Positions 4,815 to 61,015 of a stretch of DNA of 64,000 bases are shown in pieces (the first letter of the stretch is position 1; the number at the start of each line of letters is the position of its first letter). The position numbers and the translations under genes are program-made. Under the pieces are notes generated by a model that ran no database searches, was not told the origin of the DNA, and saw only the letters and a program-made list of their open reading frames with translations. The stretch is from contig MHGA01000006.1 of the NCBI GenBank assembly GCA_001804415.1, positions 14,308 to 78,307 of the forward strand, read 5' to 3'. Source of the stretch: Candidatus Aquivivens invisus. Its GTDB lineage: Bacteria; Omnitrophota; Gorgyraeia; Aquiviventales; Aquiviventaceae.

Positions 4815-6760
4815 GGATGGTTCGCCAGATACAGCAACGCGACGACTCCCACAAAAAACACCAACACGTACTGCTGCACCTTCCCGGTTTGGCACAAGCG
4901 CAGCAACCGGCCGGCCGTCTTGGTCGTCCACGCCGTGCCGTTGACCGCCAAGCCGATAATGACGAACCGCTCAAACAGCGCGCAGGCGGAGGCGATGAGG
5001 CGCTGCTGAATCCGATCCACATACCAGGCATACGCGTCGTCGATACGGTAGTGCCGAAGGAGCAGCCGGTAGACCGGGCCGAACGTCTGCGCAATCTTCG
5101 ACGGTGAGATTGAGCGCGTGCCGTAGATCAACCATGCCAGCCCGACGCCGATGGCCACCACCACCAGGGAGGTCCCGGCGATGCCCCAATGCAGCTCGGC
5201 CGCCTGCTCACCCAGAAACGCCGGGATGCCGAGGTAACCGCCGACGATGGACAGCGCCGCCAGCACCGCCAGCGGAACGAGCATGATCGTCGGAGACTCG
5301 TGCGGATGCAATCCGTGGGCGGGCGACCGAGCCGGCACCATCCCTGCTGGCGAGGAAGTGCCGTCAGCCGCAGGGCTGACGGCCTTGCCCACAAACGCCA
5401 CACACCACACCCGCGCCGTGTAGAACGCGGTGAAACCCGCGGTCACCGTCCCCAACCAGTAGAGCGAGGCGTTGTGCTCATGGGCGAGCGCGAGGATGGC
5501 ATCCTTGCTGAAAAAACCGCTCAAGCCCGGCGCGCCGCACAACGCCAGCGCGCCGACGAAAAACGAGAGCGACGTCCATCGCATCGACGTCCACAGTCCC
5601 CCCAGCTCCCAGATGTTCTGCCGGTGGGTGCCGTGGATGACGCTGCCGGCGCTGAGGAACAGCAGCGCCTTGAAAAACGCGTGCGTGGTGAGGTGATACA
5701 TGCCCGCGCCCGCCCCGCCCAACCCCACCGCCATCACCATGTAGCCAAGCTGGCTCAGCGTCGAGTACGCGAGGATGCGCTTCAGGTCCGATTCCACGAT
5801 GGCCAGGCACGCCGAGAGAAACGCCGTCGCGCCACCGACCCACGCGATCACGGTCAAGACGGTGCGCAACTCCTCGAACAGCCAGAAGGTCCGGCAGAGC
5901 ATGTAGACCCCGGCCGCCACCATCGTGGCCGCATGGATGAGCGCGGAGACCGACGTGGGCCCTTCCATCGCATCCGGCAGCCACACGTGCAGCGGAAACT
6001 GCGCCGACTTGCCCAGCACCCCGCAGAACAGCAACAGCCCGATCCCCGTCAGCGCCGTAGGGGACAGCCACCCCAGCTCCATCAGGTGCGGAAGCCGCTG
6101 GTACAGCGTCTGGAACTGCACGCTGCGCTCAGCGGCGATCGGGCTTGAGACGGCCCACAGCCAGACAATCCCCAGCAGGAAGCCGAAGTCCGCGACGCGG
6201 TTGACCATGAACGCTTTCTTGCCGGCCTCAGCGGCGGCGGGTTTCTCGTACCAGTGGCCGATGAGCGCGTAGGAGCAGAACCCCACTAGCTCCCAGCCGA
6301 TGAACAGCTCGATCCAGTTGGTCGCCAGGACGATCGCCAGCATGGAGAAGGCGAACAGCGACAGCAGTCCGAAGTACCGGCTGTAGCCGGCGTCATCCGC
6401 CATGTAGCCGATGGAATAGAGGAAGATGGCACTGCCCACGCCGGTGACCACCAGCGACATGAGCAGGGAGAGCCGGTCGATGAGCACCCCGAACGGAATG
6501 GAGAAGTCCGGCAGCCCGATCCATGTCACCGATAGCTCCAGCGGCAGGGTCAGGCCTCCGCTGCGCGCTTGGACGAACAGCGACAGCGCGCAGGCAAACG
6601 AGAGCAGCAGCCCCCCATTGGCGAGCAGCGCGCTCAACCGCCGTCGGGAGATCCCGAAGAGGAGAATCCCCAGCGCCGAGACGAGCGGGCTGAGCAACAG
6701 GGTCCACGCGCAGAAAACGGCTGAAGGCTGAAGGCTGAAGGCTGAAGGCTGGGCTACCAT
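4811..6760 (-). CDS. nuoL: NADH-quinone oxidoreductase subunit L; 12-aa N-terminal extension encoded by a (GGCTGAA)n heptamer tract
   Basis: 649-aa antiporter-like subunit with long C-terminal helix region; ATG 6760 overlaps nuoK stop. Confidence 0.85.
   Translation of the reverse strand: MVAQPSAFSLQPSAVFCAWTLLLSPLVSALGILLFGISRRRLSALLANGGLLLSFACALSLFVQARSGGLTLPLELSVTWIGLPDFSIPFGVLIDRLSLLMSLVVTGVGSAIFLYSIGYMADDAGYSRYFGLLSLFAFSMLAIVLATNWIELFIGWELVGFCSYALIGHWYEKPAAAEAGKKAFMVNRVADFGFLLGIVWLWAVSSPIAAERSVQFQTLYQRLPHLMELGWLSPTALTGIGLLLFCGVLGKSAQFPLHVWLPDAMEGPTSVSALIHAATMVAAGVYMLCRTFWLFEELRTVLTVIAWVGGATAFLSACLAIVESDLKRILAYSTLSQLGYMVMAVGLGGAGAGMYHLTTHAFFKALLFLSAGSVIHGTHRQNIWELGGLWTSMRWTSLSFFVGALALCGAPGLSGFFSKDAILALAHEHNASLYWLGTVTAGFTAFYTARVWCVAFVGKAVSPAADGTSSPAGMVPARSPAHGLHPHESPTIMLVPLAVLAALSIVGGYLGIPAFLGEQAAELHWGIAGTSLVVVAIGVGLAWLIYGTRSISPSKIAQTFGPVYRLLLRHYRIDDAYAWYVDRIQQRLIASACALFERFVIIGLAVNGTAWTTKTAGRLLRLCQTGKVQQYVLVFFVGVVALLYLANHP
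6718..6752. repeat. Tandem heptanucleotide repeat (GGCTGAA)x4.7 inside the first 15 codons of nuoL
   Basis: ggctgaa repeated 4 times perfectly + ggctggg; read directly. Confidence 0.95.
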
Positions 6761-10403: not shown

Positions 10404-10411
10404 AGCAAGCG

Positions 10412-10460
10412 ACAAGGGACAAGGGACAAGGGACAAGGGACAAGGGACAAGGGACAAGGA
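10412..10460. repeat. Tandem heptanucleotide repeat (ACAAGGG)x7 between thyX-like stop and cld-like start
   Basis: Seven consecutive 7-nt units, last one ACAAGGA. Confidence 0.95.
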
Positions 10461-10462
10461 AC

Positions 10463-11209
10463 ATGACCATGCCGATACCGGTCGAGGAAGCCAAGAGCCA
10501 CGCCCCCGCGGTTCAACGGGAGGCCGTGGCTCGGCAGATCGTGGGGTTCTCGTTCTACCGCGTGGATCCGGAGTGGAGGCGGCTGCCGGCTTCGACGAAG
10601 CGCAGGCAGGGCGGGGAGCTGGCCGGTGTCATCACGCGCTACGCCAAGCAGCTGATGGTGCTGACCTATTCGCTCGTCGGGTTGAAGCCCGACGTCGACT
10701 TCTTGATCTGGCGCGTGGGCAACCGGCTTGAGCAGCTGCAGGCGATGTCGGCGGCGGTTCGGCAGACGGCGATGGCCGGGTACCTGTCGATGCCGCACGC
10801 GTATCTGTCGATGACGAAACGGTCCACCTACGTGGATAAGCTCGATCCCGATCACGCGGATGCGCGGCGGTTCATCACGCCGTTTCACAGCAAGTACCTG
10901 TTCGTCTATCCCTTCGTGAAAACCCACGAATGGTATCAGCTCCCGTTCGAACAGCGCCAGGCGATGATGGACGAGCATATCGTCCTGGGGAACACGTACC
11001 CCTCGGTGCGGATCCACACGACCTACGGCTTCGGGCTGGATGATCACGAGTTCGTCCTCGCCTTTGAAACCGACCACCCTCAGGACTTCCTCGATCTCGT
11101 GATGGCGATGCGCGAGAGCAAGGCTCGCCCCTACACCCTGCGGGATACGCCGATCTTCACCTGTGTGGCCAAACCGTTTGATGAGATTCTCAATGAAATC
11201 GGCTGCTGA
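10463..11209 (+). CDS. Chlorite dismutase family protein (Cld-like/HemQ-like), cytoplasmic (no signal peptide)
   Basis: C-terminal half aligns with Nitrospira Cld (YxFVKTxEWYxLxxxxRxxMMxEH, GLDDxxF..FET); ATG right after the heptamer tract. Confidence 0.75.
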   Translation: MTMPIPVEEAKSHAPAVQREAVARQIVGFSFYRVDPEWRRLPASTKRRQGGELAGVITRYAKQLMVLTYSLVGLKPDVDFLIWRVGNRLEQLQAMSAAVRQTAMAGYLSMPHAYLSMTKRSTYVDKLDPDHADARRFITPFHSKYLFVYPFVKTHEWYQLPFEQRQAMMDEHIVLGNTYPSVRIHTTYGFGLDDHEFVLAFETDHPQDFLDLVMAMRESKARPYTLRDTPIFTCVAKPFDEILNEIGC

Positions 11210-18574: not shown

Positions 18575-19702
18575 ATGTCGAGAGCAGAGGCGCTGAAGCT
18601 CTTTGAGGCACGCGATCTCATCGGCCTCGGGCAATTGGCGAACGAGGTCAAGCAAGCCACATGGGGCGATCGCGCCCACTTTGTGATCAACCGCCAGATC
18701 AACCCTACGAACGTCTGCGTCCTGTCCTGCCGGTTCTGCGACTTCGCGACCAAGCGGGGACGCCCTAACGCCTACGAGATGACGATCCAGGACGTCTTAG
18801 ATCGCCTCAGCCCGGAGCTGCGGGAAGTCCACATCGTGCAGGGGCTGCATCCGGACTGGACGTGGGATTTCTACCTGGAGATGCTCCGCGCGATCAAGAC
18901 GAGCTTCCCCCGGATGCAGATCAAAGCCTGGACGGCGGTTGAGATTGACTATTTCTCCAAGAAGTTTCGCCTCTCGGTCGAAGAGGTCCTGGTGCAGATG
19001 AAGGAGGCGGGGCTCTCCGCCTTGCCCGGCGGGGGCGCGGAGGTGTTTTCCGAACGGGTGCGCAAGGCGCTGTTTCCCTTTAAAATCGGCGCGCCGAGGT
19101 GGCTGGAGATTCACCGGATCGCGCATCAGCTGGGCATCCCGACCAACGCGACCTTGCTGTACGGCCACATCGAGACGCGCGAAGAACGCGTGGATCACCT
19201 CCTGAAGCTTCGCGAACTCCAGGATGACACCGGCGGCTTCATGAGCTTCATCCCGTTGGCGTATCAAGTCGGCAAGACGCGCGTGGTCGAGCGCCAGGCG
19301 TCGGCGATCGAGGACCTCAAGACGATGGCGATCTCCAGGCTGCTCCTGGACAACATCCCCCACATCAAAGCCTACTGGGTGACGATGGGTGAAGAGACGG
19401 CGTCGATCGCCCTGAACTTCGGGGCCGATGATCTCGACGGGACGATCGGGGAGGAGCGGATCATGCATGCCGCGGATGCCGCAAGCCCGATTCGGCAGAC
19501 CCGCGAGCGGCTGGTGGAACTCATCCGAGCCTCCGGATGCGTGCCGGTGGAACGCGATGCCCTCTATCACGAGGTCGCGGTGTGCGACCCTTCGACTCGC
19601 GCCACGGCCTCTGGCCGTGGGCTCGCTCAGGATTCCGCCCCACGGGCGCAGGAAGAGGTGCCACGGGCTCTGCCCGTGGGGCTCCACAATGGCCACCGGT
19701 AA
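18575..19702 (+). CDS. Radical SAM menaquinone biosynthesis enzyme, MqnC/MqnE family (paralog 1; alternative start 18524); about 45-aa C-terminal extension encoded by hairpin repeats
   Basis: NPTNVCVLSCRFCDFA cluster motif, CofG/CofH-like fold. Confidence 0.75.
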   Translation: MSRAEALKLFEARDLIGLGQLANEVKQATWGDRAHFVINRQINPTNVCVLSCRFCDFATKRGRPNAYEMTIQDVLDRLSPELREVHIVQGLHPDWTWDFYLEMLRAIKTSFPRMQIKAWTAVEIDYFSKKFRLSVEEVLVQMKEAGLSALPGGGAEVFSERVRKALFPFKIGAPRWLEIHRIAHQLGIPTNATLLYGHIETREERVDHLLKLRELQDDTGGFMSFIPLAYQVGKTRVVERQASAIEDLKTMAISRLLLDNIPHIKAYWVTMGEETASIALNFGADDLDGTIGEERIMHAADAASPIRQTRERLVELIRASGCVPVERDALYHEVAVCDPSTRATASGRGLAQDSAPRAQEEVPRALPVGLHNGHR

Positions 19703-19736
19703 AGTCAGAAGTCAAAAGTCAGAAGTCGGAAGTACA
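19702..19736. repeat. Tandem heptanucleotide repeat (AAGTCAG)x5 (imperfect) between mqnC/E paralog 1 and mqnA
   Basis: aagtcag aagtcaa aagtcag aagtcgg aagtaca, followed by CT-rich run. Confidence 0.9.
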
Positions 19737-19766
19737 CTTCCCTCTTCCCCCTTCGCTCTTCCCCCT

Positions 19767-20522
19767 TTGACGGTGGCCCGCATTCCGTATCTCAACTGCG
19801 CGCCGTTTTTTGCCGGCCTTCCGCTCAAGCCAGGATGGGAGGTGGTCGACGTTGCGCCCAGGCGTTTAGGCCAGATGGCTGAGGAGGGCAAGTTCTTGGC
19901 GGGCGTGATGTCGCTGGCGGATTACCTGCGGTTGCAGGATCGCTTCGAGCGGATCGGGCCGCTGGGGGTGGCGGTGCGGGGACGGGTGGGCAGCGCGCTG
20001 CTGTTTTCGCGCAAACCCCTTCGGCAGCTGGACGGCGCCTGCGTCGCGGTGACGGACGAAACGTCGACGACCGCCCTGTTGCTTCGCGTGATCCTGGAAC
20101 AGCGTTACCACCTGACGGTTCGACTCGCGCCGCACGCCCACCCGACCCAGCAGGATGCTGACGCGGTGCTGCTGATCGGCGATGAGGCCTTGCGGTTTGG
20201 CAGCGTCAACCGGCTCTATCCGTTTGAGATTGATGTCGCCTTTGAATGGTGGTTGTGGCAGCATCTGCCCTGCGTCTTCGCCGTGTGGGCGATCCGCGCG
20301 GACGCCGGCGCGAGCACCAAGCGGGAGGTGAGCGAAGCCCTCCAGCGCACCCTGGCGGTCAACCTGCGTCGCCTCGATGAGCTCGTCATCCAACCGGCTG
20401 CCTCCCTGCACGTTCCGGCCGAGGACCTCACGATGTATCTGAGCCGGTTCATCTATCGTCTCAGCGCCGAGGAGGAGCGCGCCATCCAGCGCTTCGCCCA
20501 ACTGTCCCAATCCATGGCATGA
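19767..20522 (+). CDS. mqnA: Chorismate dehydratase MqnA (start uncertain: TTG 19767/GTG 19773, or ATG 19689 if heptamer tract is translated)
   Basis: RIPYLNCAPF MqnA signature, PF02621-type fold. Confidence 0.75.
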   Translation: MTVARIPYLNCAPFFAGLPLKPGWEVVDVAPRRLGQMAEEGKFLAGVMSLADYLRLQDRFERIGPLGVAVRGRVGSALLFSRKPLRQLDGACVAVTDETSTTALLLRVILEQRYHLTVRLAPHAHPTQQDADAVLLIGDEALRFGSVNRLYPFEIDVAFEWWLWQHLPCVFAVWAIRADAGASTKREVSEALQRTLAVNLRRLDELVIQPAASLHVPAEDLTMYLSRFIYRLSAEEERAIQRFAQLSQSMA

Positions 20523-33154: not shown

Positions 33155-33232
33155 CCGTTGTTTCCTCGGATGGCGGCCCGACCACCGACAACTCCTCTAA
33201 GAAGGAGCATGCGCTGCCTTCTTAGACCCTTC
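33134..33232 (-). terminator. Copy 1 of a repeated two-hairpin module ending (minus orientation) in GC hairpin plus U-run; downstream of ArsB/NhaD-family gene
   Basis: Hairpins ctctaagaagg/ccttcttagag and ccgccatccg/cggatggcgg, conserved linker GGTGGTCGGGCC. Confidence 0.6.
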
Positions 33233-34842: not shown

Positions 34843-34925
34843 CGCAAAATAAAAACCGCCATCTAGCAAACGCTAGGTGGCGGCCCGACCACTAGAAACT
34901 CCTCCGGGCGATATACCCGGACCCT
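34843..34925 (-). terminator. Copy 2 of the repeated two-hairpin/terminator module (downstream of mscS)
   Basis: GGAAGCGCAAAATAAAAACCGCCATC identical to copy 3; first hairpin replaced by ccggg/cccgg stem. Confidence 0.6.
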
Positions 34926-44023: not shown

Positions 44024-44120
44024 AGCGCAAAATAAAAACCGCCATCCAGCAATGCTAGATGGCGGCCCGACCACCGAACCTCCTCTAAGAAGGGGCACAA
44101 GACATCCTTCTTAGACCCTT
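44024..44120 (-). terminator. Copy 3 of the repeated two-hairpin/terminator module (downstream of APC permease)
   Basis: Minus orientation: GGGUCUAAGAAGG..CCUUCUUAGAGG-AGGUUCGGUGGUCGGGCC-GCCAUCUAGCAUUGCUGGAUGGCGG-UUUUUAUUUU. Confidence 0.65.
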
Positions 44121-44167: not shown

Positions 44168-45487
44168 TCACCCCACTCGCCGGCGGGAGAGCGCGTAAAA
44201 GGGTAGCGCTAGGACGAGGAGGCCGAAGCCGAAGAGCGCCTCACGCGGCTGCTTCACGCAGACGTCGAGGATGAAGCCGCACATCACCAAGGAGAACAGC
44301 AGCGGGGTCAGCGGATACCCCCAGGCGCGGTAGGGCCTTGGGCGCGTGGGATGCGCGCGCCGCAGGACGATCACCCCCAGCACCGCCATCACGAAGAACA
44401 CGGAGATGACGACCGTGGAGTAGGTCATGATCTGGTCAAACGTCTTGGTGAACACTAGCACCACGGCGATCGCCGCGTTGGTCCACAAGGCCAGGGCCGG
44501 CGTGTGATACGTCGGGTGCACGGCGCTCAACCATTCGAAGAGGGGATGATCCTTGCCCATCGCATACAGGATGCGCGCGCCGGTGAGGATGTAGCCGTTG
44601 AGCGCGCCGAACGCCGAGCAGGCTACCATGACGGCGATGAACGTCGCCCCCGGATTTCCCCACAGGCGTTCCAGCACATGCGAGGCGACCAGCGTGGTGG
44701 TCGGCAAGTCGGTCATGTCCACGCAGACCAAGTAGCTGATGTTCACCAGCAGATACAAGACAGTCACCAGCGCCAGGCCTCCGAGAATCGAACGCGGCAG
44801 CGTGCGGGACGGATCGCGGATTTCTTCGGCGACGTAGGCGGCCTCCGTCCATCCGCCGAAGGTCCACAGCACAAACACAAACGCCACGCCGGACGACTGG
44901 ATGACGGGCAGGGTCAGGGCGGGGAGGCGCCAGTCAACGGCCACGCCGCGCCCGCCGGCCAACGCAATCACGCCGGTTGCGATCACGCTGACCAACGCCC
45001 CGATCTTCAGCACGGTAAAAATGTTTTGGACCGCTGTGCCCCGCCGCACCCCCAAGACGTTGATGGCGGTCAGCAGCACAATCGAGCCGGCGGCGAGGCC
45101 TCGCAGCGCAACCGGCGACATCGGGAACAACCGCCCGAGGTACTCCGCGAACACAAAACCCAGGATGGCGATGGTGCCGGTTCGCTCGATGAACAGTTTC
45201 GTCCAGCCGAAGAGAAAGCCCCAGAACCGGCCGTAGCCTTGCGTGATGTAGACGTAGTCGCCCCCGCTCTGTGGAAACAGCGTGGACAATTCGGCGTAGC
45301 ACAACGCACCGCACAATGACACGAGTCCCCCGACGACCCAGAGCGCGAGGATCAGCGAGGGACTTGGGAGGTGCGTGGCGATTGAGCTGGCCGTGCGGAA
45401 GATCCCGACGCCGACGATGCAGCCCACCACCAGCATCGTCGCATCGAAGAGCCCCAGCGCCCTAATGAGGGAAGACGGCTTGCTCAT
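44168..45487 (-). CDS. APC-family amino acid permease (start ATG 45487; the GTG 45505 alternative lies inside the repeat)
   Basis: 12-TM APC family profile. Confidence 0.75.
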   Translation of the reverse strand: MSKPSSLIRALGLFDATMLVVGCIVGVGIFRTASSIATHLPSPSLILALWVVGGLVSLCGALCYAELSTLFPQSGGDYVYITQGYGRFWGFLFGWTKLFIERTGTIAILGFVFAEYLGRLFPMSPVALRGLAAGSIVLLTAINVLGVRRGTAVQNIFTVLKIGALVSVIATGVIALAGGRGVAVDWRLPALTLPVIQSSGVAFVFVLWTFGGWTEAAYVAEEIRDPSRTLPRSILGGLALVTVLYLLVNISYLVCVDMTDLPTTTLVASHVLERLWGNPGATFIAVMVACSAFGALNGYILTGARILYAMGKDHPLFEWLSAVHPTYHTPALALWTNAAIAVVLVFTKTFDQIMTYSTVVISVFFVMAVLGVIVLRRAHPTRPRPYRAWGYPLTPLLFSLVMCGFILDVCVKQPREALFGFGLLVLALPFYALSRRRVG

Positions 45488-45492
45488 AGCGG

Positions 45493-45559
45493 CGACAAGC
45501 GACACGCGACAAGCGACAAGAAGAGAATCATGTCACTTGTCCCTTGTCACTTGTCACTC
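45493..45559. repeat. Inverted arrays of heptamers: (CGACAAG)x4, 10-nt spacer, (CTTGTCA/TGTCACT)x4; long hairpin between M15 peptidase stop and permease start
   Basis: Read directly; right arm supplies the last codons and stop of the peptidase. Confidence 0.9.
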
Positions 45560-46419
45560 TGTTCAAAGTGCCAATGCCACGGCTCGAACGCCGTGTTGTG
45601 CGGATTATCGCGGGGGTACGACAGCACGAATCCAAACTCGTGCGCATGGTGCGCAAGCCACTGGTATTCCGGGAGGGCTTCGAACGCCTCAGGGTTGTCC
45701 TCGCCATTGATGCCCTCCTCGTTGATGAAATCGACGGCTTGGCGGGGAGGGTAGCCGTGCTCGCTGTGTCCCGGCAAGGCGACGAAACGGTTGGTCTCGC
45801 GGATGGAATGGTCGTGCTTCGGCAGATAGAAGAGGAACAAATACAGCTGATAAGCCGGCGAGCGATAGCCGGACTCAACCAGGAGGCGCTTGCCGAGGTC
45901 GTGCGCCATGGCCTCCATCATGGCCTCGTAGGCCAGCATGGCTTCCCGAGGCAGAACCTGGGCGTCCAGCAAGATCGGTTGGCCTTCCTTGAGGTATTCC
46001 TGGGGACCCACCGGCACCACGTCGGGCGGTTCGCTCAACTCCCCGAAATAGTGGGAGGTTGCGCCGAGATCGGTTCCGCGCAAGGCGCGGACGGCATCGA
46101 GGAACGCGCGCTGCTCCTCGGTGAGGGGTTGGTACAGCTCCTCCCAGGTGAGCAGGTTGGCCGTGCCGGATTGCTTGTGGGAACTGATGAGCGGATCGAG
46201 GCGTTCAAGGACCGCCTGGAGCTGCGCGGTCTCTTCAGGATCCAGACGATCGACGTGGAGGGCGAGAGCCGACGCGGCAACACACAGCAGCCCGACCGTT
46301 GCCAGAACGCCGGCGAGGAACGGTCGGGCTGCGCGCGCGTGCACGGCGAGAATTACCGTCTCTTCGATGACAATTCGTCGACCACGCCGTTGAACCAGCG
46401 CCCCGCCTGATCCTTGCAT
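45547..46419 (-). CDS. D-alanyl-D-alanine carboxypeptidase, VanY/peptidase M15B family
   Basis: ESGYRSP and LPGHSEHGYPPRQAVD motifs; signal peptide. Confidence 0.75.
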   Translation of the reverse strand: MQGSGGALVQRRGRRIVIEETVILAVHARAARPFLAGVLATVGLLCVAASALALHVDRLDPEETAQLQAVLERLDPLISSHKQSGTANLLTWEELYQPLTEEQRAFLDAVRALRGTDLGATSHYFGELSEPPDVVPVGPQEYLKEGQPILLDAQVLPREAMLAYEAMMEAMAHDLGKRLLVESGYRSPAYQLYLFLFYLPKHDHSIRETNRFVALPGHSEHGYPPRQAVDFINEEGINGEDNPEAFEALPEYQWLAHHAHEFGFVLSYPRDNPHNTAFEPWHWHFEQSDK

Positions 46420-56880: not shown

Positions 56881-57212
56881 AGGAGCTGCGTCCCGCCTTC
56901 CGGAAGGGGGACGTCGATCTGCGGGATGGGGAAGGTTGCCACGTGCAACGCCCCGCCGACGGTCTGCCCGATGCCGTTGAAGAGCCCTTCGCCGATGCCG
57001 AGGAAGAAGTTCCCTCCACCCTGGATGGCTTCCGCCGGTTCGCTGAAGATCTCCGTCCAGCCCAGCAGCCCGTTCTTGAGGCCGTAGACGAACTTGCCCT
57101 TTACCTTGCCAAGATAGTCCACCTCTTGCGTCCACGGGCTTGCCGCAAACGCCGCAATGGGCGCTGCCACCAACGCGAGGACCACTGCGATTGCCCCTAA
57201 CCGTCTGGTCAT
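56874..57212 (-). CDS. Small secreted protein, paralog family member
   Basis: Signal peptide; GKFVYGLKNGLLGWTEIFSEPAEAIQG...VGGALHVATFPIP. Confidence 0.6.
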   Translation of the reverse strand: MTRRLGAIAVVLALVAAPIAAFAASPWTQEVDYLGKVKGKFVYGLKNGLLGWTEIFSEPAEAIQGGGNFFLGIGEGLFNGIGQTVGGALHVATFPIPQIDVPLPEGGTQLLQ

Positions 57213-57348
57213 GGGTACCCTCCTCTGTTAACACAACACTCTAGCAGGGTTCTATAAAAATGCAACAAAAATTATCAAAAACCATCAAACGTTAAATCTG
57301 AATTTTCGTTTTCCTTGAGCCCATTAATCAGTACACTATTCTCGGCCC

Positions 57349-58221
57349 ATGAAACGGGTGTTGGTCGTCTACAAGAAAAGCGCCTATCAGCTCCACGTGG
57401 TGGAGCGGAAGGATCCGTGGCTGAGGCGGCTGCTGCGAGCGAGTCACCCCGATGCCCTCGACTGGCTCGCGGCCCACCGCGTGCAACAACGCACCCTCGA
57501 TGCCGTGGTGCGCAGCCTGCGCAGCCTCGGCGTGCGGGAGACCCTGGTCTATCGCGAGCGCCTTCGGCCCGCCACCGGCTACGATCTGGTGCTGAGTGTG
57601 GGAGGCGACGGGACGGTGCTGCAGGCCTCCCACTTCATGAAGGACACGCCGCTCCTGGGCGTGAACTCAGATCCGACGCGCAGTGAGGCCGTGTTCTGCG
57701 CGGCCACCGCCTCGGACGTCCATCGAGTCGTGCGGGACGCGTTGGAGGGCCGGCTGCCCGCGCTCTTGCTCTACCGCTTGGCCGTTGCGCTCAACGGCCG
57801 GCGGCTGGGTCCGTTAGCGCTCAATGACGTGCTGATCGCCCATGAGGATCCCGCCACGATGAGCCGCTATCGCCTGCGGCTCGGCGCCCGGTGTGAAGAT
57901 CACAAGAGTTCAGGATTGTGGGTGGCCACCGCCGCGGGCTCCAGCAGCGCGATGGCCGCGGCGGGAGGAAGGCGCCTGCCCTGGGGGGCCAAGCGGTTTC
58001 AGTACCGGCCTCGCGAGCTGTACCAGGGGCGCTTGACCCGTTGTCGCCTGACAGGCGGGCAGCTTTCGCCCCCACGGTGTCTTGAGTTGGTCTGGTTGAT
58101 GCGGGAGGGTGCGGTCTTTCTCGACGGGCCGCATCTCAAACACCGACTGCGATTCGGGGATCGGGTGACGGTGTCGCTCTCGCCGCAACATCCATTCCGC
58201 GTGCTGGGCTTACGCCGATGA
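57349..58221 (+). CDS. nadK: NAD kinase
   Basis: GGDGT motif, NAD kinase fold. Confidence 0.8.
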   Translation: MKRVLVVYKKSAYQLHVVERKDPWLRRLLRASHPDALDWLAAHRVQQRTLDAVVRSLRSLGVRETLVYRERLRPATGYDLVLSVGGDGTVLQASHFMKDTPLLGVNSDPTRSEAVFCAATASDVHRVVRDALEGRLPALLLYRLAVALNGRRLGPLALNDVLIAHEDPATMSRYRLRLGARCEDHKSSGLWVATAAGSSSAMAAAGGRRLPWGAKRFQYRPRELYQGRLTRCRLTGGQLSPPRCLELVWLMREGAVFLDGPHLKHRLRFGDRVTVSLSPQHPFRVLGLRR

Positions 58222-58228
58222 GACAGAG

Positions 58229-58336
58229 CGACAAGCGACAAGCGACAGGTAACAAGTCGAACAGGCCTACTCGAGGGCAGCTTCCTCTGTTGTGGTGTTG
58301 CCTTGTCGCTTGTACCTTGTCGCTTGTCCCTGTCCT
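58229..58336. repeat. Inverted arrays of heptamers (CGACAAG)x3-5 ... 37-nt spacer ... (CTTGTCG/CTTGTMC)x5 between nadK and memo-ammecr1
   Basis: Read directly; ATG 58218 (overlapping nadK TGA) is in frame through the array with the downstream gene. Confidence 0.9.
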
Positions 58337-58367
58337 TGAGGTCACGGCGGAGCCGCGAAGCGCCCGC

Positions 58368-59735
58368 GTGGCCGGGGCGTTCTATCCCGATGACCCTGCC
58401 GTCTTGCGCGCGACGATTGAGCAGCTCCTCGCGGGCCACGACGGCGCACCGGCATCGCCCGACAAGCCCCGCATACTCATCAGCCCCCACGCCGGCTACC
58501 CCTATGCGGGGTCAGTGGCCTCCCGCGCCTTCCACGAGGTCCAGGGGCGTGCCTATGATGGAGTCGTCGTCGTGGGCTTCACACACCGCTTGAACTTCGA
58601 GGGTACCTCCGTCGAGACCCGCGACGCCTACCACACGCCGCTGGGTCCCATCCCCGTCGACACGGAGGCCGTGGAGTTCCTGCAGGCGCAACCCGGCATC
58701 ACGCACGTCGAGGAGGCGCATGAGGCCGACGAGCACTCGATGGAGGTGATGCTGCCGTTCTTGCAGGTTGCCTTAGGCGAGTTCCGGGTGGTCCCGATGC
58801 TGATGGGCCGCCATGATTTCTCAGACGCCCAGGAACTGGCCGCGGCCCTGGCGCAGTTGGCGCAGCACGGCGAGTATCTGTTCGTGTTCAGCACCGACCT
58901 CTCCCACTACCATCCGTACGACGAGGCGAAACGGCTCGATGACCAGACCGTCAACCTCATCCTGCGCGAAACCGCGGGGGCGGTTGATCGGCTCTTCTCC
59001 CAGGGCCACCTGGAGGCGTGCGGTCGGGGGCCGGTGGTCGCCGGGTTGCTGCTCGCCCAACGGTTCGGCTATCTGGAGCGTCGGTTGCTCCTCTACGCGA
59101 ATTCGGGCGATACGACGGGTGAGGCGAGTCGCGGGGTCGTGGGGTATGCCGCCATCGGGATGTATCCGCCGAAGACGTCCGCGTCGGTGGAGACGGTGTC
59201 CCGCGACGCGGGGATGGCGCTGGTGCGCGCGGCCCGGCAGGTCATCACCGCGAAACTTCAACCCACCCCCTCGACCGAGGCCGTTGCGCTGGACGTGTTT
59301 CCTGAGCTGCAGCAAGCGCGCGGCATGTTCGTGACGCTGCGCAAGCACGGGGAGTTGCGCGGCTGCATCGGCCGCATCGAGACAGACGAGCCGATGGCCT
59401 CGCTGCTGCCGACCGTCTCGGTCGAAGCGGCGCTGGCGGATACGCGCTTCCTGCCTGTGACTGCGGAGGAGCTGGACGACATCACCGTCGAAGTCTCCGT
59501 CCTGAGCCCGCCGGCACCGGTCAGCTTCCAAGACATCGTCGCCGGGCGTGACGGGGTGGTGCTGCGGAAGGACGGCCGCAGCGGGGTGTTCCTGCCGCAG
59601 GTCTGGACAGAGAGCGGCTGGACGAGGCTGGAATTCTTACGCGAGCTGGCCCACCAGAAGGCCGGGCTCCAGCCGGATGCCTGGCAATCCGCGCAGCTGT
59701 TCACCTTCCAGGATCAGGTGTTTGAAGAACACTGA
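58368..59735 (+). CDS. Fused MEMO1-like (AmmeMemoRadiSam protein B-type) and AMMECR1 (protein A-type) protein; GTG start 58368, alternative ATG 58218
   Basis: N-terminal VAGAFYP...ISPHAGYPYAGSVASRAF (MEMO), C-terminal FVTLRKHGELRGCIGRIE (AMMECR1). Confidence 0.7.
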   Translation: MAGAFYPDDPAVLRATIEQLLAGHDGAPASPDKPRILISPHAGYPYAGSVASRAFHEVQGRAYDGVVVVGFTHRLNFEGTSVETRDAYHTPLGPIPVDTEAVEFLQAQPGITHVEEAHEADEHSMEVMLPFLQVALGEFRVVPMLMGRHDFSDAQELAAALAQLAQHGEYLFVFSTDLSHYHPYDEAKRLDDQTVNLILRETAGAVDRLFSQGHLEACGRGPVVAGLLLAQRFGYLERRLLLYANSGDTTGEASRGVVGYAAIGMYPPKTSASVETVSRDAGMALVRAARQVITAKLQPTPSTEAVALDVFPELQQARGMFVTLRKHGELRGCIGRIETDEPMASLLPTVSVEAALADTRFLPVTAEELDDITVEVSVLSPPAPVSFQDIVAGRDGVVLRKDGRSGVFLPQVWTESGWTRLEFLRELAHQKAGLQPDAWQSAQLFTFQDQVFEEH

Positions 59736-61015
59736 TTCGTCTGGCAGGCGGTGTTGCGGTGGAAGAGGAAGCGGCGCGCCGCCACCCAATCGTAGGCTCG
59801 TACGCCGACCCAGCGTGCGCCGGGGAGGTACAGCAGCGGCACAAGCCACCACAGCAGCACGAGCCGGACGCTGATCCGGCGAAACGCGTCAAACCCCTCC
59901 GCGATCCTCCCGTACGGCTCCACCAGTTGCATGCGACTCTGGCAGCCCTCCCGAGTCAGCGACGGGTGGATGGCGCGTAGATCCGCGACCCCGTGAAAGT
60001 CAATCGGCTCCAGCCGACCGAACAGGTCAAGCGCGAACAGCCGCGCAACACTCGCCAGGCAAAATCCGCATCGTCCGTCGTAGAGCAGGCGGATCCGCCC
60101 GCGCTGCGCATGACGGGTTCTCCGCCGTTCAATCCACCGCACGAGGGTTTCCGGCTCGACGAACAGCAGCAGCTGCGGGGGAAAGAGGAAGAAGAAGATC
60201 GTCGGCACATGGAGGGTCACCAGCAGCAGCACGTGAAAGCTGACACCCCACAGCAGCGCGAAGGGGCGCGTGCGCCGGATGAAGAGCAGGAACGGCAGGG
60301 CGAATTCCCCCGTGATGACCACCAGCTCAATCCACTGGCACACCTCAGGCTGCCCCGCCAGCCATGCGCGGAAGGGGAACTGTCGCACCACACCCTGCGG
60401 CGGGTAGCGCAGAAGATAGTAGTATGGGTTGTCGGTGAGCCAGTTGCCTCCGGCGGTGATCTTGCTCAAGCCGGTGTAGAGAAAGGTCCAGGCGATCTGC
60501 AATTGCAACAGCCGCTGCACGAAAAACGGCCGGAGGCGTTTGTACGCATGGGCGCCGGCTCGGTCGCCGCGCAGGAAGCTGTCGACCGAGAGGAAGTCGC
60601 CGGGGTAGCTCGTGACGTACATCAGCGAGAGTGTGACCAGCAAAATGTCAAATGACAGCGTGCCGATGTGGAGGGAATTGAGCGCGTAAAAGTAGTAACA
60701 GGACACTCCCATGAGGAGGCAGCTTGCCTGGGTATTGAGGCCGATCAGCACGCAGGCCCAGGAGCCGCCGAAGAGCCCGACGAACGTCCACACCAGCCAG
60801 TCGGGACTTTGCTCGATGAGCTGCAGGGCCCAGAGCGGGAAGAACGAGCCGTTCTTCTCCTTGAAGGCGGTGGCGAGGTAATTGTCCTCCATCTGAAAGA
60901 ACCCGGGGAACAGATGAGCCCCGACCGTGATCGCCACCGCGATCCGGAACAACCCCAGGCTGAGCGACGGTCTCTCGACCAAGAACGCCTTGTGCCACCA
61001 CGCTCTCACGGACAT
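59714..61015 (-). CDS. HTTM-domain (vitamin-K-dependent gamma-carboxylase-like TM domain) protein fused to a DCC-family thiol-disulfide oxidoreductase (DUF393) domain
   Basis: N-terminal LGLFRIAVAITVGAH HTTM; C-terminal LLYDGRCGFC DCC motif. Confidence 0.65.
   Translation of the reverse strand: MSVRAWWHKAFLVERPSLSLGLFRIAVAITVGAHLFPGFFQMEDNYLATAFKEKNGSFFPLWALQLIEQSPDWLVWTFVGLFGGSWACVLIGLNTQASCLLMGVSCYYFYALNSLHIGTLSFDILLVTLSLMYVTSYPGDFLSVDSFLRGDRAGAHAYKRLRPFFVQRLLQLQIAWTFLYTGLSKITAGGNWLTDNPYYYLLRYPPQGVVRQFPFRAWLAGQPEVCQWIELVVITGEFALPFLLFIRRTRPFALLWGVSFHVLLLVTLHVPTIFFFLFPPQLLLFVEPETLVRWIERRRTRHAQRGRIRLLYDGRCGFCLASVARLFALDLFGRLEPIDFHGVADLRAIHPSLTREGCQSRMQLVEPYGRIAEGFDAFRRISVRLVLLWWLVPLLYLPGARWVGVRAYDWVAARRFLFHRNTACQTNQCSSNT

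Follow-up and report, generated by a model that had tools for sequence, protein, structure and literature searches.

A tandem-heptamer stem-loop at a nadK-memo junction of Omnitrophota lies within the codons of a predicted signal peptide

What role might a pair of inverted tandem heptamer arrays play when they begin at the stop codon of one gene and are open in the reading frame of the next? This question is raised by a 64,000-nt stretch of DNA from Candidatus Aquivivens invisus (the window, whose coordinates are used throughout, on the plus strand unless marked), in which a divergent NAD-kinase-like gene ('nadK') is followed by memo-ammecr1, encoding a fusion of the Memo and AMMECR1 domains. 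The analysis showed that the nadK-memo stretch is a repeat, a stem-loop and a predicted signal-peptide coding region in one sequence. The hairpin lies wholly inside the Memo-AMMECR1 open reading frame (ORF) and hence is predicted to be translated. The coordinates of the features and the fold scores of the junctions compared are collected in Table 1.

The identity of the two genes and the start of the second one were examined first in the translations. The nadK-like product matched PF01513 weakly (28 bits), its NCBIfam NAD-kinase matches were all under cut-off, and a GGDG motif is visible in its translation; in 16 related loci, an orthologue of 59-68% identity is found upstream of memo. A profile search of the 505-aa product of the downstream gene placed Memo at residues 49-312 and AMMECR1 at residues 336-502, and TIGR04336 and TIGR04335 also matched, the alignment starting at residue 47. 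No radical-SAM partner gene adjoins memo-ammecr1 in the window. A hypothetical protein of Omnitrophica WOR_2 bacterium RIFCSPLOWO2_02_FULL_63_16 and sister bins matches the 505-aa product with 100% identity, and the start of the gene differs among public annotations, giving 505 aa from ATG 58218, 472 aa from TTG 58317 (NCBI) or 455 aa from GTG 58368; the identical 505-aa call was made by other gene callers on at least 24 contigs. As the original prediction had proposed, ATG 58218 overlaps the nadK TGA and is in frame through both repeat arms into the Memo-AMMECR1 ORF, which is open to 59735.

Orthologous loci were collected by genome and metagenome scans (56-67% protein identity; loci are designated by L numbers), and memo lies directly after nadK in 10 of them. 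The -4 ATGA overlap, used as the test for a coupled gene pair, is kept in 6 of 10 junctions (the window, L001, L103, L104, L108 and L116), and the L118 junction reads TTGA with an ATG 5 nt later. Because this overlap recurs in orthologues and the conserved end of the signal peptide lies upstream of GTG 58368, ATG 58218 is very probably the true start of memo-ammecr1, judging from the sequences compared; it is also the only start among those considered that gives a charged n-region. A start at GTG 58368, which the original prediction had named as the alternative, was rejected: both the conserved EPRSAR and the entire signal peptide precede it, the TIGR04336 alignment starts at residue 47, homologues keep A↓EPRTAK before VAG (the arrow marks the predicted cut), and the n-h-c signal peptide of about 115 homologues ends in A↓EPRxA(K/R)VAG, upstream of the GTG. 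A start at TTG 58317 was ruled out likewise, as the conserved EPRxA(K/R) and a complete signal peptide lie upstream.

Inspection of the N-terminus revealed the features of a Sec-type (signal peptidase I) signal, with five Arg/Lys in residues 1-21, an h-region at residues 22-40 (residues 24-40 of the precursor read LLWCCLVACTLSLVPVL) and V-T-A ahead of E45. A protein search showed the same n-h-c layout in every orthologue and in about 115 homologues, with the common junction AxA↓EPR(T/S)A(K/R)-VAGxFYP. By inspection and conservation, the N-terminus of Memo-AMMECR1 is thus very probably a genuine Sec-type signal peptide, and the prediction that the inverted arm encodes a hydrophobic segment of signal-peptide type was borne out: the right arm encodes L29-L40, within the hydrophobic core of a layout common to these homologues. 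A lipoprotein signal (LVAC) was ruled out by inspection, since the Cys is not kept in orthologues and residue 28 violates the usual lipobox rule. A twin-arginine translocation (Tat) signal was also ruled out, since the RR motif is not conserved and TIGR01409 gave no match. Essentially all Memo-AMMECR1 fusions of Omnitrophota (P0002-P0120) carry a classical signal peptide and the A↓EPRTAK junction. The predicted export of an AmmeMemo-type protein is unexpected, as the system is usually regarded as cytoplasmic, and it alters the view of these proteins in Omnitrophota. For annotation, the fusion would be a predicted secreted or periplasmic precursor starting at the ATGA overlap, not the 472- or 455-aa cytoplasmic protein of public records.

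The repeats were then delimited with Tandem Repeats Finder (TRF), which reported period-7 arrays at 58222-58247/58256 (GCGACAA type) and 58301-58335 (CTTGTCG type). The left arm comprises about 3.6 units with a match of 94% and is perfectly periodic over 21 nt, that is, three units, the longest perfect run; the right arm comprises about 5 units with a match of 75%. The 'long' inverted heptamer array of the original prediction was therefore confirmed as a pair of inverted arrays but not as a long one, the arrays being short and imperfect, with three perfect units on the left. The arms are inverted copies over 30 nt with 80% complementarity, and the gap between them measured 44-45 nt in place of the 37 nt given originally. 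Folding of the 171-nt region gave a minimum free energy of -80.4 kcal/mol compared with -63.4 +/- 4.2 kcal/mol for dinucleotide shuffles (z = -4.0; none of 200 shuffles was as good). The predicted main helix has about 31 bp, 14 + 17 bp around a 2x2 internal loop, with 58222 paired to 58334, in agreement with the proposed stem of about 30 bp directly 3' of nadK. No terminator-like site was found in 57000-60000, no T-run lies 3' of the stem (the tail reads CCTGTCCTTGAGG), and no promoter-like site was found in the same interval; an intrinsic (Rho-independent) terminator and an internal promoter were ruled out on this ground. Rfam covariance models gave no family match, the sole match being to a long noncoding RNA model at E = 0.17, which is noise.

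Table 1. Features of the nadK-memo junction, heptamer loci of the window and fold scores of orthologous junctions
Feature	Position	Strand	Fold score	Remarks
Divergent NAD-kinase-like gene ('nadK')	57349..58221	+		290 aa; TGA 58219-58221; ORF listing
ATGA overlap, memo-ammecr1 start and nadK stop	58218..58221	+		-4 spacing; ATG 58218-58220, TGA 58219-58221
Memo-AMMECR1 fusion gene, predicted secreted precursor	58218..59735	+		505 aa; no in-frame stop from ATG 58218 to 59735
Signal-peptide coding region, residues 1-44	58218..58349	+		n-region MRQSDKRQATGNKSNRPTRGQ, h-region LPLLWCCLVACTLSLVPVL, c-region EVTA, predicted cut before EPRSARVAGAFYP; translation inspected
Left arm, about 3.6-5 imperfect GCGACAA units	58222..58256	+		TRF, inverted-repeat search, fold; encodes residues 2-13 (RQSDKRQATGNK)
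Spacer between arms	58257..58300	+		GGUAACA / UGUUGCC lengthens the helix; remainder a small inner hairpin and loop
Right arm, about 5 imperfect CTTGTCG units, decaying to hexamers	58301..58335	+		TRF, fold; encodes L29-L40 (LVACTLSLVPVL)
Complete stem-loop	58222..58334	+		Outermost pair 58222-58334; starts directly 3' of nadK stop; fold
GTG, alternative start	58368..58370	+		Rejected
(CCTTCAG)4.7 array (sense strand)	6719..6751	-		nuoK to nuoL junction; 2 nt past nuoK stop, nuoL 5' end
Single-arm (GGGACAA)6 array, GACAAG family	10406..10463	+		Fills 59-nt spacer between ThyX-like and chlorite-dismutase-like genes
(AAGTCAG)4.6 and (CTTCCCY)4.4 arrays	19702..19767	+		Begin in mqnE-like stop codon, upstream of mqnA-like gene
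Second full GACAAG-family hairpin (arrays 45492/45531)	45486..45562	-		D-Ala-D-Ala-carboxypeptidase-like gene to permease gene
Window nadK-memo junction			z -3.4	
L103 junction			z -3.2	
L104 junction			z -3.9	
L105 junction			z -3.4	
L107 junction			z -5.7	
L108 junction			z -5.1	
L126 junction	566-672 (of L126)		-67 kcal/mol (energy, not z)	Octamer arms (GAAGAACY)5 and (GTTCTTCR)5

The two arms correspond to different parts of the signal peptide, the purine-rich left arm giving the basic, polar n-region and the pyrimidine-rich right arm giving the hydrophobic core. The genetic code accounts for this division, because complements of polar codons are mostly hydrophobic codons. A perfect (CTTGTCG)n array would read LVACRLS in the memo frame, and inspection of the sequence showed that the departures of the right arm from this unit (CG to AC, then the hexamers CTTGTC/CCTGTC) fall where an Arg codon would enter the hydrophobic core. 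The first of these departures (CG to AC) gives rise to the 2x2 internal loop of the stem; since a change that removes an Arg creates the loop, the protein constraint appears to outweigh pairing at this point. In codon choice the balance appears reversed. CTT makes up 5% of the Leu codons in the genes of the window compared with 4/7 of those in codons 22-40, and an index like the codon adaptation index (CAI) was 0.31 for the right arm versus 0.74 for the remainder of the gene, suggesting that a nucleotide constraint outweighs codon choice in the right arm.

According to the original prediction, slippage by repeat units could toggle a signal-peptide-like extension or switch translation off. The 7-nt unit is indeed not divisible by 3 and lies within codons 2-40 of memo-ammecr1, so that one unit more or less would change the reading frame and thereby switch the secreted protein, or its signal peptide, on or off, as the CTCTT repeats do in the leader-peptide codons of Neisseria opa (PMC3745409). 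Slippage does occur in this genome, in a long perfect tract, because the noncoding six-unit array at 10406 differs by one unit between assemblies, and the start geometry of L108 and L126 differs as though frames had shifted in evolution. However, the tract contains only two to three perfect units and is interrupted, whereas contingency loci typically carry a long uninterrupted tract of at least 5-6 perfect units. The 271-nt region did not differ by a single base among the 22 loci fetched (15 distinct contigs, obtained from different assemblies and by different assemblers), so no repeat-number polymorphism was seen at the assembly level and repeat length was invariant there; the same 505-aa product occurs on at least 24 contigs. 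Look-ups anchored in nadK, which are independent of the repeat, returned a single gene geometry with no alternative downstream gene length, and repeats of this type also stand at the start of housekeeping genes, nuoL among them, for which switching would do harm. A phase-variable contingency switch is accordingly very improbable, and the slippage toggle was abandoned. As the imperfections are those that remove Arg codons from the core, the tract is better described as a stable translated sequence.

The nadK-memo element is not the only heptamer locus in the window, to which the enrichment counts and the family census refer. Three perfect period-7 arrays of at least 2.5 copies were observed versus 0.02 expected, the remaining periods from 4 to 12 being at expectation, and the double unit GACAAGNGACAAG with at most one mismatch gave 17 matches versus 0.23 expected, located at three junctions. 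All five heptamer loci lie between co-directional genes, and each begins at -9 to +3 nt relative to the upstream stop codon; the (N)GACAAG unit occurs in three of the five, and GGCTGAA or AAGTCAG in the other two. The hairpin at 45486-45562 aligns with the nadK-memo hairpin across both arms, the ACAGAG lead-in included, and the TGA of its upstream gene (45549-45547) sits in its first arm. A covariance model (R1) scored the two copies at 87 and 86 bits, respectively, both being training sequences of the model. A search of the retrieved sequence with R1 returned only its three training copies at high score and no further GACAAG copies, and weaker matches in L103, L105 and L108 are generic repeat-armed hairpins. 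Dispersion resembling that of repetitive extragenic palindromic (REP) elements is represented by a small number of copies, the two full hairpins of the window and one in L113, which align over both arms. These results indicate that the nadK-memo hairpin is one copy of a lineage-specific heptamer family, defined here by sequence, which is found at co-directional junctions and starts at the upstream stop. The original prediction had counted it as the third case of an ATG followed by a heptamer tract; the pattern is better accounted for by arrays that track stop codons and cistron junctions in general, the array at 10406 being purely intergenic and that at 19702 probably preceding a real TTG/GTG start.

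Several observations were made beside these loci. The array at 6719 was unchanged in three other assemblies and that at 19702 in 10 others, and the (GGGACAA)n array at 10406 has six units in the window versus five in three other assemblies of the same organism (L120-L122). The nuoL ATG (6760) precedes the nuoK TAG by 1 nt, and the (CCTTCAG)4.7 array comes immediately after this ATG (6719-6760, minus strand); if the ATG is used, the array would give nuoL a repeat-encoded extension of about 15 residues ahead of the first transmembrane helix. Each unit of the array at 10406 holds a ACAAGGGA / AAGGA purine motif, just upstream of ATG 10463. Just before the arrays at 19702, two copies of a short palindrome, CCACGG(C/G)CTCTG(G/C)CCGTGG (about 19601-19625 and 19661-19682), lie inside the C-terminal tail of the mqnE-like ORF, and this tail looks poorly conserved. 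An ATG in the loop of the 45484-45562 hairpin (45531, minus strand) opens a 15-codon hydrophobic upstream ORF (MILFLSLVACRLSPL), whose TGA overlaps the permease ATG 45487 as ATGA, suggesting a possible termination/re-initiation relay. Look-ups of P0122 and of the 45547-46419 product returned no record.

Comparison with related species was based on 11 loci with memo directly after nadK and 10 loci with memo behind its own promoter. Strong structure was predicted in 7 of the 11 direct junctions, six of them with z-scores from -3.2 to -5.7, and the 10 own-promoter loci gave z-scores from -1.1 to +1.3 and had no arrays in their signal-peptide codons. The units vary by species (CGACAAG, GACTCAA/GACGCAA, TAGTCCA, CCCTTAT and the octamer GAAGAACY), yet the best partner of every left arm is the right arm of its own locus, the mean RNAduplex energy being -49 kcal/mol on the diagonal versus -21 kcal/mol off it. 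The memo start codon lies at the 5' stem base in the window, in the left arm in L104 and L105 and in the apical loop in L107 and L108; in most loci, the 5' stem base contains or adjoins the nadK stop. In another species, L113 (536-680; also L114) carries a GACAAG-family hairpin with z = -8.4 that starts at the nadK stop and aligns with the nadK-memo hairpin; a separate, canonical terminator hairpin comes next, then a csp (cold-shock) gene in convergent orientation, and memo, at a distance of 750 nt, has a promoter of its own and an unrelated signal peptide. Since this hairpin sits at the nadK stop with no adjoining memo, and the stop is at or in the 5' stem base in most loci, the constant associate of the element across these alignments is the upstream stop codon, and the memo frame runs over the element when the gene is adjacent. 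Further arrays and inverted pairs were found at other junctions of related genomes.

Two side observations concern these loci. In L126, a canonical in-frame start is lacking from the nadK stop up to a GTG with which only a truncated signal peptide of 12 residues would remain; this could mean a non-canonical start or an inactive state. Where memo is separated from nadK (L002, L003, L005 and L109-L117), an extended -10-like box, TGnTACAAT, is conserved only about 7-40 nt ahead of the memo ATG, a placement suggestive of leaderless mRNAs or very short leaders in this lineage.

As to what the element does, we judge the chances about even that it has a translation-level role at the junction, in which a stop-proximal hairpin of REP-like or Xanthomonas-like type, overprinted by signal-peptide codons, tunes termination and re-initiation. 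The stem-loop would act on the mRNA at the nadK-memo junction. Because it lies less than 15 nt from the nadK stop, it would meet the terminating ribosome like stop-proximal REP hairpins, and because it encloses the memo start region, it would block independent initiation of memo. Synthesis of Memo-AMMECR1 would then depend on the ribosomes that complete nadK and be kept low relative to them, as they terminate and re-initiate and the stem unfolds. Translation is reduced by REPs lying no more than 15 nt from a stop codon, according to the account of Liang 2015 given in PMC12306157. Structure just past an upstream stop lowers coupling, and structure around a downstream start enforces it (PMC12548453).

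Several points weigh against this proposal. It was derived from position and conservation alone. When fold energies of sense and antisense strands were compared (G-U pairs), the sense strand was better in only 5 of 8 cases, so that RNA-level and DNA-level constraint are not separated. L001, L106 and L118 have junction heptamers without a significant global fold. Hairpin-bearing and hairpin-free loci may be two clades, in which case the contrast between them would not be phylogenetically independent, and the concerted change of the arms could stem from template switching or gene conversion instead of selection. Finally, the L113 element exists without a downstream start, so control of memo initiation cannot be its general role.

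The same material can be read as a neutral or selfish by-product, in which heptamer slippage (polymerase bias) and template switching between arms make and homogenize hairpins in weakly constrained sequence, namely intercistronic spacers and signal-peptide codons, with no function of the hairpin and selection only for an open frame and a hydrophobic core. Heptamers are over-represented in the intergenic DNA of many bacteria, for which slippage has been proposed as an explanation (PMC4692102), and here the units vary by junction and species, 3 of the 11 junction loci have arrays with no significant fold, the noncoding array at 10406 differs by one unit between assemblies, indicating active slippage, and protein constraint alone accounts for the right-arm deviations. 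Yet the signal-peptide codons of the 10 own-promoter loci are equally unconstrained and have neither arrays nor folds, the element stays at one and the same stop codon in species that share only 56-68% protein identity, GACAAG-family copies of different species are closely similar, and all arrays are tightly placed at stop codons. On balance, we find such a by-product doubtful, though it deserves serious weight.

An action on the transcript was also weighed, in which the stem would be an attenuator or pause site lacking a U-tract, an RNase III processing site or a barrier to 3'-exonucleases, leading to unequal amounts of nadK and memo mRNA from one promoter. In every locus with a separate memo, a GC-rich terminator-like hairpin lies within 5-15 nt past the nadK stop; it is of the plain type in the separated loci other than L113, and the interval 57000-60000 has no promoter-like site for memo. 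RNase III cuts the heptamer-repeat arm of a long 5'-untranslated-region (5'-UTR) hairpin in Haemophilus influenzae hmw (PMC12721329), and REP hairpins stabilize upstream mRNA (PMC12306157). Conversely, the stem has no T-run, the tandem arrangement of the repeat hairpin and a separate canonical terminator in L113 implies that these are different devices, a cut within the stem would destroy the memo coding region, and the conserved ATGA points to co-translation of nadK and memo. Taken together, these findings make a transcript-level action quite unlikely.

The tuning of termination and re-initiation can also be extended to a wider scenario, which we regard as unlikely. In the Omnitrophota lineage, tandem-repeat-armed stop-codon hairpins would be a maintained, lineage-wide class of cistron-junction regulators whose arms co-evolve by concerted turnover. 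When read through from an ATGA, such a hairpin would yield a ready-made signal peptide consisting of a polar n-region, the loop and a hydrophobic core, because complementary codons pair polar with hydrophobic residues. A regulatory RNA hairpin, under dual selection on RNA and protein, would then encode the signal peptide of Memo-AMMECR1 and perhaps be its origin or its replacement.

To place the element among known systems, its features were compared with those of published repeats and hairpins. The closest parallels are the heptamer families of Xanthomonas (GGGAATC) and Nostoc (GGGGAYT), which include inverted pairs (Rehm et al. 2015, PMC4692102). Like the nadK-memo element, they consist of imperfect 7-nt units in arrays of 2 to about 8 copies, lie mostly between co-oriented ORFs near the stop of the 5' ORF, frequently form convergent pairs capable of stem-loops, and occupy the same junctions in related species with turnover of length and sequence. 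They differ in that the Omnitrophota units are not G-rich and so have no G-quadruplex potential, and in that the 64-kb window has no uniform unit, three of the five loci being of GACAAG type and two having other units. The TAACTGA direct repeats of marine Beggiatoaceae, for which a post-transcriptional role was proposed but not tested (MacGregor 2015, PMC4679880), are likewise heptamer arrays, of 2-6 copies, that abut start codons, often overlap the upstream stop and occasionally lie within ORF ends. However, TAACTGA has stops in all frames and cannot be read through, its arrays are almost never inverted (one indirect repeat), and it is a single genome-wide unit, unlike the loci of the window. 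In contrast to the intergenic type of all three groups, the nadK-memo copy is entirely coding and predicted to be translated.

REP elements and bacterial interspersed mosaic elements (BIMEs) of Escherichia coli, as far as the account of Liang, Rudd and Deutscher 2015 in PMC12306157 describes them, are also dispersed imperfect palindromes at 3' ends and operon junctions. As in REPs, the hairpin starts within a few nucleotides of the upstream stop, and effects of REPs on the terminating ribosome and on mRNA stability are known from the same account; by that description, REP is one 35-nt unit whereas the nadK-memo arms are tandem heptamers, and the nadK-memo copy differs in being intragenic for the downstream gene. 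The H. influenzae hmw1A 5'-UTR, which precedes the gene of a secreted protein, folds into a long RNA hairpin with a heptamer repeat as one of its arms; this structure affects expression, and RNase III dependence has been shown (PMC12721329). That array, however, has at least 11 perfect units, is phase variable, pairs with a G-rich non-repeat right arm and lies in the UTR, not in codons. Neisseria opa resembles the element in that a short tandem repeat (CTCTT), with a unit not divisible by 3, encodes a hydrophobic part of a signal peptide (PMC3745409), but the opa tracts are long and perfect and switch at about 1e-3 per generation, whereas the nadK-memo tract has 2-3 perfect units, showed no variation and is accompanied by an inverted partner arm. 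Rickettsia palindromic elements (RPEs) are a further case of a dispersed palindrome tolerated and translated in a protein-coding gene (PMC10969869); RPEs are about 150 bp long and lie inside folded domains, whereas this one lies at the extreme N-terminus and doubles as a predicted targeting signal. Coupled gene pairs with -4 (ATGA) spacing share the stop/start overlap and structure near the downstream start and just past the upstream stop (PMC12548453), but the nadK-memo structure is far longer than in typical examples and lies downstream of the start codon. No system compared combines all features of the nadK-memo element.

The stop-adjacent heptamer hairpins of Xanthomonas, Nostoc and Beggiatoaceae, the function of which has never been explained, thus extend to an uncultured phylum, in which RNA structure, repeat and protein codes overlap in one stretch. 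As the same junction occurs in about 20 species, with or without the hairpin and with differing units, it offers a test system for selected RNA structure.

Other observations in the window do not bear on the junction. The nhaA-I RNA family (RF03057) had three minus-strand matches above gathering score, at 33168-33229, 34875-34924 and 44057-44118 (42.5-42.9 bits). Assemblies of the same organism, compared by BLAST, differ at 56920-56958 and 60388-60410, with scaffold gaps (N runs) among the differences. In L087, a divergent segment lies in a small TIGR04073-like gene, and in L088 an unmatched insert of about 80 nt, flanked by a 23-nt duplication (60388-60410), splits an HTTM/DCC1-like gene.

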